Positions 4,978-11,559 of a stretch of 16,897 nucleotides of DNA are shown piece after piece. Origin of the DNA: a virus. The stretch lies in UHGV virus genome UHGV-0124835; one strand, written 5' to 3'. The translations under genes and the position numbers were made by a program. The notes below the pieces were generated by a model, which saw only the letters and a program-made list of their open reading frames with translations, did not search any database and was not told the DNA's origin. How positions within the stretch are numbered: position 1 is the first letter of the stretch; each line of letters begins with the position of its first letter.

Positions 4978-5215
4978 TTCTTACCTGTTTAAGTAACTGG
5001 TTGAACATAACACTTAGGGGATTGCTGTATCCAAACGGCAGATTGTTTACGCAGTACAGAATCATTTTGTTTTTTTCTCCAGTTCGTACTATTAACCCAT
5101 TCCACAATAACCGTGATAATTCATTACTGATAGAAGTTGCGCTTCTTCCAAGTGCGAGGGATATATCTTCTCTACTGCAATCTGGATTTTCCTGGATATA
5201 CTCGATAACGGTCAT
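4967..5215 (-). CDS. small winged-helix-like putative DNA-binding protein (83 aa)
   Basis: Track ORF 4967..5257 trimmed to the ATG at 5215 (MTVIEYIQENPDCSREDISLALGRSATSISNELSRLLWNGLIVRTGEK...) preceded by AAGGGA, directly after the TAA of the upstream gene. Confidence 0.55.
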   Translation of the reverse strand: MTVIEYIQENPDCSREDISLALGRSATSISNELSRLLWNGLIVRTGEKNKMILYCVNNLPFGYSNPLSVMFNQLLKQVRNGN

Positions 5216-5225
5216 GTGGTCCCTT

Positions 5226-5807
5226 TTACTTAATATCTGTTTCGGATTGCATGCCATGAGTATTTATTTCGTTAATAATTTCATCCAGAAGGATTTCAAG
5301 CCCTTCTCGACCCATATCTGAAAGAATGAAACCTTTATCAGGGGAAGTAGTGAGCATTTTCTGATAAAGAAACAGCGCTCTTCCCATTCCTTCAGCTTCG
5401 CCGTATTTTTGAATTAAATTCCATTCAATATACTGTTGTAAGGCAAATCGAATGGGGCCGGGATATATCGTCATAAACCCATACATCCCGTTATATACCA
5501 CGGCGTGTTCAGTTGTTCCGTGTTCATTCAGGATATCAATTGTGCCGTTCTTGTCTTCTTCTTCGTTGATGAATGTCGTCACATACAACCATCGCCACTG
5601 AGCAACCTTCATCTCAACCGGAAGTTTACCCAGTAATCCTGCTTCGTCGGCTTGCGCCAGACACTGAAGGATACGTAAACCTCGCACATTAGGAGTATCG
5701 AATTCTCCGGCATCCAGACGACGTATGGCGTCGTGATAATCAATCGTCATACTGCCAGTTCGTATACCATTGGCTGTTGCTTCAGCCTGGAATTCATCGT
5801 ATTGCAT
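5226..5807 (-). CDS. hypothetical protein (193 aa)
   Basis: ATG at 5807 preceded by GAGGAA; long well-formed ORF with no motif I recognise. Confidence 0.7.
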   Translation of the reverse strand: MQYDEFQAEATANGIRTGSMTIDYHDAIRRLDAGEFDTPNVRGLRILQCLAQADEAGLLGKLPVEMKVAQWRWLYVTTFINEEEDKNGTIDILNEHGTTEHAVVYNGMYGFMTIYPGPIRFALQQYIEWNLIQKYGEAEGMGRALFLYQKMLTTSPDKGFILSDMGREGLEILLDEIINEINTHGMQSETDIK

Positions 5808-5896
5808 GATATTTATTCCTCATCTTCATCTTCATCTGCTGGTGCAATAACGTCATATCCTGCCCTTTCTGCAATAAACAGGAATGTTGAAAGAGT

Positions 5897-6001
5897 TCAT
5901 ACAAGTTCATCGTCATGAACATGGCGAATGAATATTACTTTCCCGTTTTTGATGGTCAGCAATACTCTGGTTTGTTCGTGTTCTGCTGTTTTCTGATGCA
6001 T
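5897..6001 (-). CDS. hypothetical small protein (34 aa), not in ORF track
   Basis: Hand translation MHQKTAEHEQTRVLLTIKNGKVIFIRHVHDDELV; ATG preceded by GGGAGA; the frame stays open past its TGA for 27 more codons ending in an acidic tail (ADEDEDEE). Confidence 0.3.
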   Translation of the reverse strand: MHQKTAEHEQTRVLLTIKNGKVIFIRHVHDDELV

Positions 6002-6003
6002 TA

Positions 6004-6117
6004 TTATCTCCCGTATGCTTTACGCAGAAATAAGCAGGCAATATGCATGTAATTTTCACCGTATTGTGCAATAAGGCAGGCGGTCTTGTGTGATGCCATA
6101 TTCTTTATAAAAGTCAC
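6004..6117 (-). CDS. hypothetical small protein (37 aa), not in ORF track
   Basis: GTG start 7 nt downstream of a perfect AGGAGG; TAA stop abuts the ATG of the next small ORF (TAATAATG). Confidence 0.3.
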   Translation of the reverse strand: MTFIKNMASHKTACLIAQYGENYMHIACLFLRKAYGR

Positions 6118-6195
6118 AATAAAGCCTCCTGTGGATTAAGGTTGTAACAATCCCCGGCGATAAAACCGCAATAAACGTTCAGGGCATATTTGTTG

Positions 6196-6561
6196 TTATT
6201 GCGCTAATTCTTTTTCGGCAGCAGCTTTTGTATACTCACATGCAAAACTCAGAATTTCGCTGCCGAGTGTTTTCGTTTCGTGATTACTGGACATATGTAA
6301 TACCTGTGTTGCATGCAATAAATGATAAACATTTACCGCAAATGAATCAGGCTCCAGACAAATGCCTTCGTAATTATCTTGCTGTGAGGTTGTTTCTGTC
6401 ATTGCTCCTAAAGTGCATGCGAGCCTGTTTTTGACAATTCTCTTTTCTCTAATCACTATATCGGCAACATCTATTGCCTTTACAACCTCCGGGAGAAGTT
6501 CCGGGTTTGTATAATCAAAGTCATCAACATGGAGAACAGTTATGTTTTCGAACTTTTTCAT
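6196..6561 (-). CDS. hypothetical protein (121 aa), second gene of the cI-downstream module
   Basis: ATG at 6561 preceded by GAGGAAG; no recognisable motif. Confidence 0.65.
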   Translation of the reverse strand: MKKFENITVLHVDDFDYTNPELLPEVVKAIDVADIVIREKRIVKNRLACTLGAMTETTSQQDNYEGICLEPDSFAVNVYHLLHATQVLHMSSNHETKTLGSEILSFACEYTKAAAEKELAQ

Positions 6562-6599
6562 GGCTTCCTCAGCTGACTTATATGTTCTGCTATATAGCG

Positions 6600-6628
6600 A
6601 GTCTCAGAAGTGTTTTCATATTGAGACT
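6600..6628. promoter_or_regulatory. 7-bp inverted repeat (AGTCTCA-N15-TGAGACT) upstream of the 121-aa gene
   Basis: Perfect 7-bp arms with a 15-nt spacer, about 40 nt upstream of the ATG at 6561, overlapping a TATATA -10-like element on the minus strand. Confidence 0.35.
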
Positions 6629-6689: not shown

Positions 6690-7238
6690 TCACCATTGGT
6701 ATTGGTTCTTCCGCAGAAGAGCTTCGCGAGATAAGGGGCAAACTTGTTGAGATGCGTCATGGTGTTGCTGCTCCTCACTTTTTGGTTGCTCCGGAGGAGT
6801 AACCTCACCAGTTAACAGCCACATCGGATCGCAGCCAAGAATATTTGCCAGTGGGATAAGCATACTGATAGTTGGTTCATACTCTCCGCTCTCCCACTGG
6901 ATGATAATTTCTTCATCGAGATCGAGCAGCCTGGCGAGTTCGGCGGTTGTTAAGCCGCAGGCTTCGCGTTGGGTGCGAAGGTTAACCAGCCAGCTTTCAG
7001 GGAAGGATTGTTTTTGTTGTGCAGGAGAAGCAGCAGATAGAGCATATTCATGGATAAATTCCATTACCTCAATGCCCAGTTCCTTTGAGCGAGCACAATC
7101 CAGAAGATGGAATGTGCGTACAGCACTTAGCAAATTTGCAATATTTAATGCAAAGGAATCAAGTTCTAAGCCCTTAAGCGTAACACAGCCGCAGTTGATA
7201 AAATTAGTTGTTTCTGGAGTTGCTTTTAGTGTCTTCAT
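6690..7238 (-). CDS. XRE-family helix-turn-helix domain protein with unknown N-terminal domain
   Basis: Track ORF 6690..7268 trimmed to the ATG at 7238 (MKTLKATPETT...); residues LTTAELARLLDLDEEIIIQWESGEYEPTISMLIPLANILGCDPMWLL match the Cro/C1-type HTH consensus; the ~95-aa N-terminal region is unrecognised. Confidence 0.7.
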   Translation of the reverse strand: MKTLKATPETTNFINCGCVTLKGLELDSFALNIANLLSAVRTFHLLDCARSKELGIEVMEFIHEYALSAASPAQQKQSFPESWLVNLRTQREACGLTTAELARLLDLDEEIIIQWESGEYEPTISMLIPLANILGCDPMWLLTGEVTPPEQPKSEEQQHHDASQQVCPLSREALLRKNQYQW

Positions 7239-7350
7239 ATATCCGCCAACAATTTTAAATTGAATCAAATCAAGTTATAATTGATGGTGCGATATTATGT
7301 TTTGGGAAACAGGCTGTCAAGAAAAAATTGATATCGTATATTTCAGGCAG

Positions 7351-7372
7351 AAAAAAACGGGCAAAGCCCGTT
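7351..7372 (-). terminator. rho-independent terminator downstream of cI
   Basis: On the minus strand ACGGGC-TTT-GCCCGT followed by T7 (plus strand shows A7-CGGGC-AAA-GCCCG-TT), 12 nt after the cI stop. Confidence 0.75.
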
Positions 7373-7383
7373 AAAATCAAAGA

Positions 7384-8073
7384 CTAACCAAATCTGTTTA
7401 TGTTGAATGGTACTGATGAGATCACTTTAGACTGGATATAAAGCAGAGCTAACCCCTCTTTTTCGATGCTCCATGGTTGATAATTGGGGTTATCAGATAA
7501 CACCATGATTTTGCTTCCAATTTTTTGAAGCCTTTTCACGTAGCATTCTCCATCAAAACAAAATGCATAAATACCATCGCCATCAAAATAAGTTACTGTC
7601 TTATCAAGAAAAAGAAGGTCGCCAGGTGAGATTGTGGGAGCCATACTGTCTCCTCTGGCGTTACCTATTTCTATATTTTTGAATGCCCGATTTCCAACAA
7701 GACGTCGGGCATATTCAGGATCAAGTTCTATTGAGCGCACTACATCTATCAAGTCACCACGGACATGAGTTCCATCACCGCAACTAAACTCAACATCAAG
7801 GACATTAAATACGACGCTATCTGTTCTTGTCTGGTGTTTCTCTTGCGAGGAAAAGGTTGGTGAGGAGTCTTCACCTAAGAACCAGGATTGTGGATAACCG
7901 CTAATCTCTGATAAATGCGCGAGCTTATCACTCCGTGGAAATGTTTTTCCTGTTGTCCAGTACTGCACTGATTGCGCACTCACACCTAACTTGCGGGCCA
8001 GTTGAGCCTGAGTCCATCCTTTTGCTTTCAGCATCGCGGCTATTCGATTTTCCGTGTTTTTGACGTTCTTCAT
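7384..8073 (-). CDS. cI-like prophage repressor (N-terminal HTH, C-terminal S24 LexA-like peptidase domain)
   Basis: Track ORF trimmed to the ATG at 8073 (MKNVKNTENRIAAMLKAKGWTQAQLARKLGVSAQSVQYW...); HTH near the N-terminus and a C-terminal domain with GDSMAPTISPGDLLFLD and a KRL motif typical of S24 autocleaving repressors; divergent from a cro-like gene. Confidence 0.9.
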   Translation of the reverse strand: MKNVKNTENRIAAMLKAKGWTQAQLARKLGVSAQSVQYWTTGKTFPRSDKLAHLSEISGYPQSWFLGEDSSPTFSSQEKHQTRTDSVVFNVLDVEFSCGDGTHVRGDLIDVVRSIELDPEYARRLVGNRAFKNIEIGNARGDSMAPTISPGDLLFLDKTVTYFDGDGIYAFCFDGECYVKRLQKIGSKIMVLSDNPNYQPWSIEKEGLALLYIQSKVISSVPFNINRFG

Positions 8074-8479: not shown

Positions 8480-8519
8480 TGGTGGTGATATGAGCGAAAA
8501 AATAACTATTAAATACGAT

Positions 8520-8542
8520 GGGGCAACCATTTCGATTGCCCC
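8520..8542. terminator. hairpin between the convergent cro-like gene and the 8550..8843 gene
   Basis: GGGGCAA-N9-TTGCCCC stem-loop 8 nt beyond the stop of the minus-strand gene; a T-rich tract follows on the minus strand only after about 15 nt, so terminator function is tentative. Confidence 0.3.
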
Positions 8543-8549
8543 AATCACA

Positions 8550-8843
8550 TTAGCGTTCGCTGAGAAGTTGTTGGTAAGCCTTAAAGGATGCGAACTGCAT
8601 TCTACCTTCGGCATTGATTCCAATGCCTTCGCTTGTACACCAGGTGATGAACTCGGCTGTATCCGCTTCAACTTTAATAACTCGTTGCCCGCTTCTTTCG
8701 ACACGCTTAATCAATTTTTCAGCGTCGTGTTTCCACTCGGTGTAACTGTCGGAGAGCACATCAGCATCAGTAAAAATATTTTTGAGCTCATGATACTGAA
8801 TCGCATCGCGAAACCAGAATAAACCAACGGCCTGAACTTTCAT
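8550..8843 (-). CDS. hypothetical protein (97 aa), convergent to cro
   Basis: ATG at 8843 preceded by AAGGAGGT at ideal spacing; protein-like composition (MKVQAVGLFWFRDAIQYHELKNIF...). The overlapping plus-strand ORF 8490..8822 is judged antisense. Confidence 0.55.
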   Translation of the reverse strand: MKVQAVGLFWFRDAIQYHELKNIFTDADVLSDSYTEWKHDAEKLIKRVERSGQRVIKVEADTAEFITWCTSEGIGINAEGRMQFASFKAYQQLLSER

Positions 8844-8962
8844 GTCGAACCTCCTTTGGTTCTTTTGTTTATAGGGATCAAAAGGATAACTGAAGGAAGG
8901 TTCGGCACCAATAAGTACGAATGTGCGGAATCTTAAAAGAATTTATCCGTAAGGAGATGGCA

Positions 8963-9568
8963 GTGAACACCGCAATTTTTAACGACAAAGCATCCATGAC
9001 CAGCGTTGAGATCGCAGAGCTGGTGGGTAGTCAGCACTCAGATGTTAAACGTAGTATCGAACGCCTGGTTGCTAAAAACATCATCCGGAAACCGCCAATG
9101 GCTGTTTCCGAGAAAATCAATAACTTAGGTTTTAAAGTTCAATATGAGCATTACCTGTTTGAAGGAGAACAAGGTAAGCGCGACAGCATCATTGTCGTCG
9201 CACAGCTCTGCCCTGAATTCACTGCTCGCCTGGTAGATCGCTGGCGTGAACTGGAAGAACAGATCCGTAAGCCAATGAGCGAAATCGAAATGGTTGCCGC
9301 GATGGCTCTTGAAGCCGTTCGCCAACAGAAACGGATCACTCAGGTGGAAGAAAAAGTCAGCCACGTTGCTGAAACAGTCGAGCAAATTAAAAAGGGCACT
9401 ATTCGTGAGGGCTATGCCGGATATCGCCAACTGAAAGCAAAAACCGGTTTGTCAGATGATAACCGCGAGGGACTCGCTGGTATCACCCGAAAATGGGGTT
9501 ATTTCAGGTTATTGGTTGGCAGCGGTGAAAAAAAGCCGGGAGTAACCCGGCTCACTCAACATCAATAA
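8963..9568 (+). CDS. Rha-family phage regulatory protein (antirepressor-like), paralog 1
   Basis: Motif MTSVEIAELVGSQHSDVKRSIERL typical of the Phage_pRha family. The track ORF starts at ATG 8921 with no SD; an in-frame ATG at 8957 abuts the AAGGAG; the GTG at 8963 has the best SD spacing and is used here. Confidence 0.75.
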   Translation: MNTAIFNDKASMTSVEIAELVGSQHSDVKRSIERLVAKNIIRKPPMAVSEKINNLGFKVQYEHYLFEGEQGKRDSIIVVAQLCPEFTARLVDRWRELEEQIRKPMSEIEMVAAMALEAVRQQKRITQVEEKVSHVAETVEQIKKGTIREGYAGYRQLKAKTGLSDDNREGLAGITRKWGYFRLLVGSGEKKPGVTRLTQHQ

Positions 9569-9658
9569 CGGGGAGCTGTTTCGCATAAAACGGCTCCGAA
9601 ACATCCAAGAACAGTTCTAAAGATATCAGCAGCTATATGATCATTTCAAGACCAAATA

Positions 9659-9687
9659 TTGATTCTGCAATTTCGGGACGTTACACT
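9659..9687 (+). promoter_or_regulatory. sigma70-like promoter of Rha module A (TTGATT-N17-TACACT)
   Basis: Read directly: TTGATT, 17-nt spacer, TACACT; the same element recurs almost base-for-base at 10315..10343. Confidence 0.55.
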
Positions 9688-9795
9688 GTCTCTGCACCTT
9701 ATAAAGCGGGTGCCGGGGGTCGCAGCCCGGAATTGCATACGGCGATATATGACGCGCCAGCGTCTTTTTTATCGTCCGCGCTCACGCACGCCAGA

Positions 9796-9906
9796 ATTAT
9801 GGTGGGCTGGGCAGGGGAGCCGAAAGGCTCGCCGGTTTCCGTATGCGCCGGTACTGCGAACCCTGTTCAGTTCACCACCCATGAGTTTCGCAGCTCCGGT
9901 GGTGGA
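9796..9906 (+). ncRNA. c4-like antisense RNA candidate, module A
   Basis: Conserved ATTATGGTGGG box; GAAA-tetraloop hairpin 9817-9830; CCGG-closed 12-nt loop TTTCCGTATGCG (9836-9847) complementary to TGCATACGGAGG at the SD of the downstream gene; 8-bp TCACCACC/GGTGGTGG stem (9872-9879 with 9898-9905). Ends are not defined. Confidence 0.5.
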
Positions 9907-9916
9907 AGTTATCCAT

Positions 9917-9928
9917 TGCATACGGAGG
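9917..9928 (+). promoter_or_regulatory. antisense target site overlapping the SD of Rha paralog 2
   Basis: TGCATACGGAGG pairs with loop 9836-9847 over 12 positions (9 Watson-Crick plus 3 G-U); a direct repeat of the core ATTGCATACGG is at 9731-9741. Confidence 0.5.
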
Positions 9929-9936
9929 CTGCCATC

Positions 9937-10299
9937 ATGGCTACTGTCCTAACTTCCCCATTCCTAAAAATCGAAGTCGTCAACGGCAAGGCCGTTATTT
10001 TCTCCCTGCATGTTGCCTGCCATTTCAAGCGCATGCACCAGAACATCGTTGACAAAATCGAGTATCTGAACTGCTCACGCGAGTTTTTTACCCGCAATTT
10101 CATACCGGGTACTTATCACATCTACGGTGACTCCCTGCGTGGTTATTACATCACCCTTGATGGTCTGATGATGCTTCAGCTTGGGTTAAGTCTGCGCACA
10201 ATGCGGTACTACGAGAGCTGCATTGAAGCATTCCATGAGGCTGAAACCGTCCAGGGTCACTCCGCGTTCCGTCGTAATCAACGGGAGGTGCACCTATGA
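9937..10299 (+). CDS. Rha-family phage regulatory protein, paralog 2 (120 aa)
   Basis: ATG at 9937 with GGAGG 8 nt upstream; Rha-like core IEVVNGKAVIFSLHVACHFKRMHQNIVDKIEYLNCSREF...YYITLDGLMML. The track ORF extends upstream to 9637 through the leader; that extension is judged non-coding. Confidence 0.65.
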   Translation: MATVLTSPFLKIEVVNGKAVIFSLHVACHFKRMHQNIVDKIEYLNCSREFFTRNFIPGTYHIYGDSLRGYYITLDGLMMLQLGLSLRTMRYYESCIEAFHEAETVQGHSAFRRNQREVHL

Positions 10300-10314
10300 T
10301 CCGCCACCAGCATA

Positions 10315-10343
10315 TTGATTCTGCAATTCCGGGACGTTACACT
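10315..10343 (+). promoter_or_regulatory. sigma70-like promoter of Rha module B (TTGATT-N17-TACACT)
   Basis: Same element and spacing as 9659..9687, inside a ~60-nt block nearly identical between the two modules. Confidence 0.55.
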
Positions 10344-10451
10344 GTCTCCGCACCTTATAAAGCGGGTGCCGGGCGTGGAAACCCGAAATTCAATATAGAG
10401 CACAACCGCGCTCATGCGGTTTTTTCGTGTCATGAGCATCGTTACGCCCAA

Positions 10452-10564
10452 ATTATGGTGGGGCGTGCAGGGCCAACTTCGGTTGGGCCGGGTTCTATGT
10501 TGACCGGTATTTCCACCCCTGTACGTCTCACCACCTATATGGTCGTGGAAAGCCTTGGTGGTGA
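10452..10564 (+). ncRNA. c4-like antisense RNA candidate, module B
   Basis: Same architecture as module A with compensatory changes: UUCG-tetraloop hairpin CCAAC-TTCG-GTTGG (10473-10486); CCGG-closed 12-nt loop GTTCTATGTTGA (10492-10503) complementary to TCAACATAGGGG at the SD of the downstream gene; conserved TCACCACC/GGTGGTGA stem. Confidence 0.5.
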
Positions 10565-10575
10565 GTTCATTGAAT

Positions 10576-10587
10576 TCAACATAGGGG
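10576..10587 (+). promoter_or_regulatory. antisense target site overlapping the SD of Rha paralog 3
   Basis: TCAACATAGGGG pairs with loop 10492-10503 (9 Watson-Crick plus 2 G-U); an upstream near-repeat TCAATATAGAG is at 10390-10400. Confidence 0.5.
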
Positions 10588-10595
10588 CTGTCACC

Positions 10596-11147
10596 ATGAC
10601 TACTCTCCCAACCCAATCTCACCCTGAAATCACGATTATCAATGGTCGCGTTGTCACCACATCTCTTGCAGTAGCTAATTACTTTACTAAACGGCATGAG
10701 CGGGTTTTAGATAGAATTAGAAACCTCGAATGTTCCGCTGAATTTACTGAACACAATTTTGTGTTAAGTGAATACACCGACGCATCAGGCCGCAAACTCC
10801 CTTGTTACCAAATCACCCGCGACGGTTTTGCGTTTCTTGCCATGGGCTTCACTGGTAAACGTGCTGCCCGGTTCAAAGAGGCATACATCAACGCCTTTAA
10901 CCTGATGGAGAAGAGTTTATCAGGTGCCGATGCGTCTGATATGTCAGCTGTCGCACGAAACGCCAGAGGCGTATACCTGCATTTGCGTGAAATCCATCAA
11001 ATCTGGACAAGCCAGCTTTATCCAATGCTTAAGGCCGTTGAATCTCCGCTGGCTAGCAAACTGTACGACCGTGTTGGTGATGCTGTTTTTGGCGCTGCAC
11101 TTGTTGATTCCAGGCTGAATGGTTCTGACAAGGAGGTTCGCCCATGA
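10596..11147 (+). CDS. Rha-family phage regulatory protein, paralog 3 (183 aa)
   Basis: ATG at 10596 with AGGGG 8 nt upstream; Rha-like core ITIINGRVVTTSLAVANYFTKRHERVLDRIRNLECSAEF...YQITRDGFAFLAMGFTGKRAARFKEAYINAFN. The track ORF extends upstream to 10296 through the leader. Confidence 0.65.
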   Translation: MTTLPTQSHPEITIINGRVVTTSLAVANYFTKRHERVLDRIRNLECSAEFTEHNFVLSEYTDASGRKLPCYQITRDGFAFLAMGFTGKRAARFKEAYINAFNLMEKSLSGADASDMSAVARNARGVYLHLREIHQIWTSQLYPMLKAVESPLASKLYDRVGDAVFGAALVDSRLNGSDKEVRP

Positions 11148-11338
11148 TTAGTTACGAAATCATCATCTCCACTACGGAATACAGAAACGATGTATCAGTT
11201 CGCACGGATGTATCTGTCTGGCACCGTCGCTATAAATCCAGAAAAACAGCGGAACTGAAAGCGGCAGAGATGTGTGAAACCATCTCAATGAAAGGTAGCC
11301 CGGTTAAATACGTAACTACGGCGGAGGTGCGTCCATGA
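11144..11338 (+). CDS. hypothetical protein (64 aa)
   Basis: ATG overlaps the stop of the Rha gene (ATGA); AAGGAGG upstream. Confidence 0.6.
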   Translation: MISYEIIISTTEYRNDVSVRTDVSVWHRRYKSRKTAELKAAEMCETISMKGSPVKYVTTAEVRP

Positions 11339-11559
11339 TCCGCCACATCGTTAATTCCCTGTATCACCGATACAACCGTTGCCCCCGTGTGGGGCAGTGG
11401 TTCGCCACCAGCAACGGTCACGTTCTGCGGGTTTGCCTAGTCAACGCTGAAAGCCAGAAAGTCGTGTGCGAACTACAGGGGCGTAGCTACACCATCAGTT
11501 ACCCTCTGGCGGTATTTCTGTCTGGAAAAATGTTTAAGCGTCTGGGAGGTGTGGCGTGA
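11335..11559 (+). CDS. hypothetical protein (74 aa)
   Basis: ATGA overlap with the upstream stop; GGAGG upstream. Confidence 0.6.
   Translation: MIRHIVNSLYHRYNRCPRVGQWFATSNGHVLRVCLVNAESQKVVCELQGRSYTISYPLAVFLSGKMFKRLGGVA

Follow-up and report, generated by a model that had tools for sequence, protein, structure and literature searches.

Phages P1 and P7 owe their heteroimmunity to matched changes in the c4 antisense RNA and its targets. Their immI region, in which a c4 antisense RNA is followed by icd and ant1/ant2, was reportedly described by Citron and Schuster in 1990. Heteroimmunity of P1 and P7 has since been documented (PMC12197685), and the P1 record NC_005856 annotates P1c4, a1, b1, c4, a2 and b2 ("repression of icd ant translation"), followed by icd. 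In Gifsy-1, the small RNA IsrK activates translation of a downstream antirepressor-like gene, and Hershko-Shalev et al. noted a likeness of this system to P4 seqA and CI (PMC4825925). Relatives of P4 CI and seqA within "Bro-network" genes are detected by the Rfam C4 and isrK models (PMC10111431), and in the APSE phages the C4 elements a′ and b′ have been matched to the region upstream of a Bro-network gene (PMC7313666) and annotated in LR794150. Two tandem modules, A and B, in a 16,897-nucleotide (nt) stretch of virus genome UHGV-0124835 (the window, to whose full length all coordinates refer) were analyzed here, with loops and sites read directly from the sequence letters. Each module is probably an RNA switch of the P1 immI/Gifsy-1 isrK type, located 5′ of a Rha ("Bro-network") regulator gene. 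The observation is a rediscovery of the known C4/isrK switch, a well-known type of prophage switch, and the arrangement recurs in Escherichia coli prophages; it does not reveal a new mechanism.

Rfam returned two C4 matches and two isrK matches in the window, all above the gathering scores of 45 bits for C4 (RF01695) and 50 bits for isrK (RF01394), and both C4 matches were full length. The C4 antisense RNAs lie at 9795 to 9882 in module A (83.3 bits) and 10451 to 10538 in module B (82.4 bits), and the isrK-family small RNAs lie at 9694 to 9770 (58.8 bits, with further evidence from a terminator scan and covariation) and 10350 to 10426 (61.6 bits). These features, and all others unless stated otherwise, are on the plus strand. 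C4 A folds into a closing stem of 17 bp and two hairpins. A loop that a preliminary description of this stretch had flagged as antisense to the ribosome-binding site of the Rha gene is the loop of the second hairpin and is the b′ element (targeting loop) of a C4 antisense RNA of the phage P1 type. That reading stood insofar as the loop belongs to an Rfam C4 RNA and, as in P1 c4, is complementary both to the Shine-Dalgarno sequence of the next gene and to an upstream copy, but a second recognition pair had been overlooked. The upstream copy was likewise real, but it sits in the separate, terminated small RNA of the isrK family (RF01394), which the description had missed.

The structures of both RNAs are conserved in related modules. 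In the P1/P7 c4 system, a precursor is processed, with RNase P acting at its 5′ end, into a stable trans-acting repressor RNA of ca. 77 nt; of the features that would fit such processing, the C4 copies show the conserved 3′ CACCACC motif and a tRNA-acceptor-like stem. Across 26 distinct variants the 27 pairs of the C4 fold were 99.9% paired, with changes on both sides at 12 of them, compared to 30 to 49% pairing in slid controls. Hairpins 1 and 2 of isrK were 99.6 to 100% paired and barely variable, with a compensatory change in only 1 of 10 pairs. The upstream segment with the elements a1 and b1 is better described by isrK than by the c4-a1b1 motif (RF03163; gathering score, 46.7 bits), for which the matches at 10337 to 10389 (25.0 bits) and 9681 to 9733 (17.2 bits) were below threshold and P1 itself scored 51.0 bits.

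In module A, the b′ loop TTTCCGTATGCG (9836 to 9847), closed by a CCGG/CCGG stem (9832 to 9835 and 9848 to 9851), can form nine Watson-Crick and three G-U pairs with b2, TGCATACGGAGG (9917 to 9928; UGCAUACGGAGG in RNA letters). This site includes the GGAGG Shine-Dalgarno sequence, 9 nt 5′ of the ATG at 9937. The upstream copy, ATTGCATACGG (9732 to 9742), contains b1, UGCAUACGG (9734 to 9742), in the single-stranded linker of isrK A. The corresponding elements of module B are the b′ loop GTTCTATGTTGA (10492 to 10503), b2 with the Shine-Dalgarno sequence, TCAACATAGGGG (10576 to 10587; UCAACAUAGGGG in RNA letters), which precedes the start ATG at 10596, and the upstream copy or b1, TCAATATAGAG (10390 to 10400; UCAAUAUAGAG in RNA letters), within isrK B. 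The preliminary description had placed both loops and their four targets correctly, apart from the upstream copy of module A, which it gave as 9731 to 9741.

The second recognition element, a′, is CUGCGAA (9854 to 9860) at the junction of C4 A, where it pairs with a2 in the leader (UUCGCAG, 9887 to 9893) and with a1 in the loop of isrK A hairpin 2 (UCGCAG, 9720 to 9725). In module B, a′ is UUUCCAC (10510 to 10516) and pairs with GUGGAAA in both a2 (10545 to 10551) and the a1 of isrK B (10375 to 10381). The elements of isrK A are, in order, hairpin 1, hairpin 2 with a1 in its loop, the linker with b1, and a terminator, the hairpin of which (9751 to 9764) is followed by U6; the terminator of isrK B (10404 to 10421) is followed by a U-run, and both were called in the terminator scan. 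Leader A (9887 to 9936) holds a2, an anti-Shine-Dalgarno segment, CUCCG (9894 to 9898), that pairs with CGGAG (9923 to 9927), and b2 with the Shine-Dalgarno sequence, and leader B (10545 to 10595) holds a2 and b2 with the Shine-Dalgarno sequence. Across modules, the leader anti-Shine-Dalgarno helix was 84% paired with compensatory changes at five of nine pairs, which is moderate covariation support. A putative promoter (9659 to 9687; TTGATT, a 17-nt spacer, and TACACT) with a predicted start at about G9694 precedes isrK A, at the position of the annotated P1 promoter P1c4/P51b and of the Gifsy-1 isrK promoter. The putative promoter of module B (10315 to 10343; predicted start, about G10350) has identical hexamers, and the promoter regions of the two modules (repeat D1) are 89% identical across 84 nt.

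IMG/VR was scanned with a conserved promoter word, which yielded 89 stretches, 80 of them listed as loci, and 97 C4 copies were recovered from these loci and the window with a covariance model based on C4 A and C4 B. The copies had 13 types of b′ loop and 8 types of a′, every one of which was accompanied by matching b1, b2, a1, and a2 elements in its own module, and a and b types were found in varied combinations. Covariation of the a and b pairings was counted on 44 distinct natural modules. Between b′ and b2 (12 pairs), pairing was 94.7% and 7 pairs had compensatory changes, and the 9 pairs between b1 and b′ were 99.5% paired, again with 7 compensatory. For the a elements, six of the seven a1-a′ pairs (95.1% paired) and four of five a′-a2 pairs had compensatory changes. 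When the same pairs were slid by one to three columns, pairing was only 34 to 47%. In all 44 modules, b2 overlapped the Shine-Dalgarno sequence.

The two modules of the window differ from each other at six of nine positions of the core b sequence and at four of seven positions of a, so the second recognition element, a′, also distinguishes them, and the action of each RNA should be confined to its own cassette. RNAduplex energies for b′A were −16.7 kcal/mol with leader A versus −7.9 kcal/mol with leader B, and those for b′B were −12.1 kcal/mol with leader B versus −6.2 kcal/mol with leader A; the calculated cognate duplexes were thus ca. 6 to 9 kcal/mol stronger than the cross duplexes. The comparison of cognate with cross pairs that had been proposed as a check on the preliminary description therefore came out as expected for both modules. 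Among related modules, the mean b′-leader energy was −16.1 kcal/mol for cognate and −8.4 kcal/mol for noncognate combinations. Together, the pairing covariation and the energies indicate that the pairings are under selection and predict that the two modules are separate in specificity. Separate, P1/P7-like specificities are thus supported, and the earlier proposal that co-variation of loop and targets makes the two RNAs heterospecific is borne out as a prediction; cross-talk between them in vivo would presumably be absent. With whole C4 RNAs plus leader or isrK, RNAcofold gave a ΔΔG of ∼0, as this method cannot form loop-loop or pseudoknotted (kissing) contacts.

Leader A contains a further site, GGUGGAAGU (9901 to 9909), that pairs with a′B as strongly as does B's own a2 and is a possible point of one-way cross-talk. 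Part of this site is a conserved GGUGGUG that is also able to pair with the 3′ strand of C4. The word GCATACGG occurs 4 times in the window (0.46 expected) and the word TCAAYATAG occurs 3 times (0.21 expected), counts that were reached in 0 of 200 shuffles. The fourth GCATACGG site (6011 to 6018) is part of AGCAUACGGGAG (6007 to 6018, minus strand), which could form 11 pairs with the b′A loop and covers the GGGAG Shine-Dalgarno sequence of a 34-amino-acid open reading frame (5897 to 6001, minus strand) in the leftward operon. As a co-evolving target the site at 6011 to 6018 was rejected, as it is invariant in 34 sources (33 loci and the window) whatever the b′ type. The match at 6007 to 6018 is probably due to chance or is at most an opportunistic target.

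The region that specifies the RNAs can also be read without interruption in the Rha frame. Long open reading frame A (9637 to 10299; 220 amino acids), a RefSeq "ash family protein," spans the promoter, isrK A, C4 A, and the leader and is in frame with the nested Rha2 (9937 to 10299), a short protein of 120 amino acids with the Rha N-terminal domain only. Long open reading frame B (10296 to 11147; 283 amino acids), a RefSeq "Rha family phage regulatory protein," likewise spans module B and Rha3 (10596 to 11147; 183 amino acids). The Pfam Phage_ASH domain (PF10554; 62.7 and 35.8 bits) matches amino acids 16 to 106 of the first and 15 to 111 of the second, exactly over the RNA region of each module, and the Rha domains follow at amino acids 123 to 203 and 121 to 206 (105 bits in the latter). 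In other words, the Pfam Ash domain, of unknown function, is what conceptual translation of the DNA for isrK, C4, and the leader yields at 9682 to 9955 and 10338 to 10628.

From the start of isrK to the ATG of Rha, 38 distinct modules had no stop codon in the gene frame, compared to 136 and 61 in the two alternative frames. An ATG is conserved ∼300 nt upstream of the nested Rha start in the module comparison, and the AUG inside C4 (AAUUAUGG; 9799 to 9801 and 10455 to 10457) shares the Rha frame in 51 of 51 modules. Among C4 variants, a 1-nt deletion in a′ was always offset by an additional nucleotide in the leader. The lack of stops, the in-frame AUG, and the compensated deletion argue that the coding layer is no trivial artifact, and the region seems to be both an RNA gene and a translated sequence. 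As in the P4 eta/kil type of nested coding, a long open reading frame runs through the RNAs and a shorter gene is nested in the same frame.

Rha2 and Rha3 are paralogues with 36% identity (E = 7e-21). Rha3 matches Phage_pRha (105 bits) and TIGR02681 (100 bits), whereas the matches of Rha2 to Rha models were below the cutoffs (28.0 versus 29.9 bits and 35.6 versus 45.95 bits); Rha2 is conserved as a 120-amino-acid open reading frame in many loci. Neither protein showed similarity to AnrP or to P1 Ant by BLAST. The RNA switch is therefore a portable unit that is placed on different Bro-network genes. A terminator-like hairpin, AACGGCAAGGCCGTT (9982 to 9996), followed by ATTTTCT, is located 45 nt inside Rha2, and no counterpart was called in Rha3 by the terminator scan.

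From these features, and from the homologous systems, we infer promoter use, processing of C4, and the direction of regulation. The internal promoter would produce a short, terminated isrK-like small RNA, and readthrough of the weak isrK terminator would give a longer transcript with the C4-like RNA, the leader, and the Rha gene. The 12-nt b′ loop of C4 would pair with b2 on the Rha Shine-Dalgarno sequence while a′, in the adjoining junction, would pair with a2 ∼30 nt upstream, and these contacts may hold the nested Rha start closed, as the anti-Shine-Dalgarno helix may also do in cis. The isrK-like small RNA, which carries a1 and b1 in the same sense, could compete for a′ and b′ as a decoy and so relieve the block, with specificity set by the a and b sequences. 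Because the RNA region is open in the Rha frame, ribosomes arriving from upstream might translate straight across the RNA elements and on into Rha, overriding the switch. Their entry points could be the long-frame ATG at 9637, the ATG at 10296, which has GGAGG at 10284 to 10288 in front of it and is coupled to Rha2 through an ATGA overlap, or the AUG inside C4.

Several observations weigh against this proposal. A consensus promoter scan of the window made no call at the putative isrK promoter of module A, which has 8 of 12 consensus matches. The anti-Shine-Dalgarno helix, too, masks the Shine-Dalgarno sequence in cis, so that pairing with C4 may not be the main gate. In addition, a′B finds a site of −8.8 kcal/mol in leader A (9901 to 9909), and the a element alone is thus not cleanly module specific. 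In Gifsy-1, the only homologue tested, the RNA demonstrated to act in trans is the activator IsrK (PMC4825925), and constitutive expression of the C4-like STnc1160 strengthened IsrK toxicity rather than relieving it (PMC4825925). The latter result is a warning, as it does not agree with a simple picture of C4 as a repressor.

The Gifsy-1 experiments (PMC4825925) favor a scheme of activation only, in which the C4-like segment would be part of a self-inhibited mRNA, with a1 and b1 paired to a′ and b′ in cis and no free repressor, and the isrK-like small RNA, as the sole trans-acting RNA, would open a ribosome entry at the C4 AUG (9799 and 10455) into Rha. The position of that AUG in the Rha frame in all 51 modules, with no stop in the frame, also agrees with it. 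However, the covariation of b′ and a′ with b2 and a2 is as tight as that with b1 and a1, which such a scheme does not require, and the P1 record annotates its homologue as a repressor that is processed and acts in trans. The covariation of a2 and b2 instead points to real pairing between C4 and the leader, and we give activation alone a limited chance of being the whole explanation. In a further scheme, modeled on P4 immunity, C4 would pair with its upstream (seqA-like) and downstream (seqC-like) sites mainly to cause premature termination, which would shut off the replication genes downstream and not Rha translation. The location of the modules between a cro-like gene and replication genes and the terminator in each module are in accord with this possibility, as are the detection of P4 seqA and CI by the Rfam isrK and C4 models and the embedding of RNAs in a long open reading frame with a nested shorter gene, as in P4 eta/kil (PMC10111431). 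In contrast, the overlap of b2 with the Shine-Dalgarno sequence in every one of the 44 modules favors translational control, the terminator scan found no conserved terminator after a2/b2 (the hairpin at 9982 to 9996 is present in module A only), and a LexA-family (CI-like) protein repressor is encoded in the prophage as well. Termination as the main output seems rather unlikely.

The remaining explanations deny the RNA switch altogether. The region could be merely an N-terminal "Ash" domain of Rha proteins, its complementarities being by-products of coding repeats, and the Phage_ASH matches, the RefSeq annotation of the long open reading frames, and the strictly conserved frame are what such a domain would produce. 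However, coding does not account for the compensatory changes, which affect three helices and four long-range pairings, both covariance models score far above threshold, and homologous RNAs have been experimentally detected in P1 (record annotation) and Salmonella (PMC4825925), which makes a purely protein-level account very improbable. The complementary matches are short (9 to 12 nt), as would be expected of chance, but the word counts were not reached in any of 200 shuffles and the pairing co-varies across 13 loop types; the covariation refutes chance, to which we assign almost no probability. The P1 immI/Gifsy-1 isrK type of switch, with C4 acting on the leader and isrK as its decoy, remains the probable reading of each module.

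The preliminary description had considered it unusual for two such modules to be in tandem in one prophage, and this was not upheld. The whole 1.6-kb pair was present at ≥80% coverage in 91 of 5,426 complete E. coli genomes, with parts of it in 1,420, and the junction between Rha2 and module B was present in 95 of the 5,426. Among 77 IMG/VR loci with a C4 match, 15 had arrays, of which 12 had two C4 copies and 3 had three (L039, L078, and L045). The number of distinct array compositions was 11, including the pair of the window. Sharing of b′ within an array was seen in 0 of 17 pairs, which is not significant by shuffling (P = 0.08). The module as such was found in 354 phage records, including many Stx phages, SfV, where it is an "immunity region," and APSE-3, the record of which already annotates C4, a′, and b′.

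The three-module prophages have a period of 656 bp and are located at 9709 to 11108 (L039), 5203 to 6602 (L078), and 6795 to 7903 (L045) of their loci. A divergent C4 (56 bits; 15-nt loop) is present in L009 (8148 to 8598), L045, and L055 (1625 to 2078), only 360 nt after the previous C4 and within a single 242-amino-acid open reading frame. In Salmonella phage S.Typ Adana (L092, 1537 to 1790), b′ (GUUCUAUGUUGA) and a′ (UAUUUCCAC) are identical to those of module B of the window, and the same RNA "address" is therefore common to E. coli and Salmonella phages.

At the cassette junction of the window (10284 to 10299), GGAGG (10284 to 10288) is followed by an ATGA in which the start of long open reading frame B (10296) overlaps the stop of Rha2 (10297 to 10299). 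The junction motif GGAGGTGCNNCCATGATCCGCCAC, which comprises the Shine-Dalgarno sequence, the ATGA overlap, and the codons for MIRH, is found at cassette boundaries of the window, at 10284 to 10307, 11132 to 11155, and 11323 to 11346 (the first and last as repeat D3). The same junction precedes the second and third modules in other arrays, and the motif looks like a point of recombination and coupling for the addition of cassettes. A further Rha gene upstream, Rha1 (8921 to 9568), is without an RNA module. Between the cro-like gene and Rha1 there is a minus-strand open reading frame of 97 amino acids (8550 to 8843) with a strong AAGGAGG ribosome-binding site, which overlaps a plus-strand open reading frame (8490 to 8822) and is followed by an 11-bp terminator hairpin (8543 to 8519). 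Sixteen bases of that hairpin (8522 to 8537) have a perfect inverted copy within Rha1 (9283 to 9298).

The array organization, the two-part combinatorial address, and the fused reading frame may be undescribed, as a literature search of limited reach found no description of such arrays, of a combinatorial code, or of a fused frame. A broader and more speculative idea, which we advance tentatively, is that lambdoid E. coli prophages carry expandable arrays of up to three separately specific C4/isrK-Rha cassettes with a two-part code, its b types (at least 13) and a types (at least 8) assorting independently, that the cassettes are exchanged at GGAGGTGCNNCCATGATCCGCCAC and coupled through ATGA, and that they could form a network of RNA cross-talk or anti-immunity among prophages. 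If so, one prophage could run several independently gated regulators, and RNA addresses could be common to coresident or superinfecting phages, as the presence of the module B address in the Salmonella phage illustrates. The 13 b and 8 a types with their matched targets, in arrays of two to three cassettes, are a ready set of predicted mutually specific RNA-target pairs, suited to asking how few mismatches part self from nonself in C4-type regulators and whether prophages in one cell communicate through C4/isrK RNAs. The pairing code of both RNA families can be read directly from sequence. The results also call for a correction of annotation, as RefSeq and Pfam give only "ash family protein" and "Ash domain, function unknown" for a region that encodes two curated RNA families.

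The APSE phages of Hamiltonella resemble the window in having C4 and isrK upstream of a Bro-network gene (BRO-N/Rha) (PMC7313666), but they have a single module. In P4, a processed C4-family RNA, CI (seqB), likewise has one upstream complementary site (seqA) and one downstream (seqC), and the eta/kil region similarly has an internal constitutive promoter and RNAs within a long "Bro-network" open reading frame with an Ash domain and a nested gene, as reportedly described by Forti et al. in 1999 and summarized in PMC10111431. The output of P4 is transcription termination, with no protein repressor, whereas in the window the downstream site is the nested gene's Shine-Dalgarno sequence, and a LexA-family (CI-like) repressor is present.

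The Gifsy-1 locus, isrK-orf45 (STnc1160)-anrP, has the same isrK plus C4 architecture; its C4 scored 71 bits, its b2, AUCACCGGAGGG, covers the anrP Shine-Dalgarno sequence, and an AUG inside C4 (L093, 34254 to 34252, minus strand) opens an open reading frame that leads into the cargo gene. Numbering from the A that starts IsrK reproduced the published C18, G28, G31, A107, U120-G121, C159, and C162. With this renumbering, the pairs G28-C162 and G31-C159, established by compensatory mutations (Hershko-Shalev et al. 2016; PMC4825925, Table 1D), are contacts of a1 (UUGGCGU) with a′ (ACGCCAA), so that experiments on a homologue have established a1-a′ pairing. Trans activity is lost on mutation of IsrK to G28A or G31A (PMC4825925, Table 1F), and Hfq binding and trans-activation by isrK have been shown only for Gifsy-1 (PMC4825925). 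The 45 codons of orf45 must be translated for anrP to be translated (PMC4825925), and the orf45 UGA overlaps the anrP AUG (coupling), whereas in the window the frame runs on without a stop, as a fusion with Rha. Gifsy-1 further differs in that AnrP is unrelated to Rha2 and Rha3 by BLAST and in that its single module is downstream of the Q antiterminator gene, not beside cro.

Compared with P1, the cargo of the window is of the Rha family, with no similarity to icd-ant, and the a1/b1 segment has its own terminator and fits isrK (59 to 62 bits) rather than c4-a1b1 (17 to 25 bits). Unlike in P1, one open frame extends through the whole region and continues into the cargo gene, and the host is a lambdoid prophage with the two modules in tandem in its early right operon. 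The elements follow one another as in P1 immI (promoter, a1, b1, C4 with a′ and b′, a2, and b2 over the ribosome-binding site), with the spacings of module A within 1 to 2 nt of those of P1, and P1 c4 matches the same Rfam C4 model (68.8 bits). In both, hairpin 2 bears b′ in its loop, and a′ is at the junction. As in P1 and P7, specificity changes through matched changes in the RNA and its targets.

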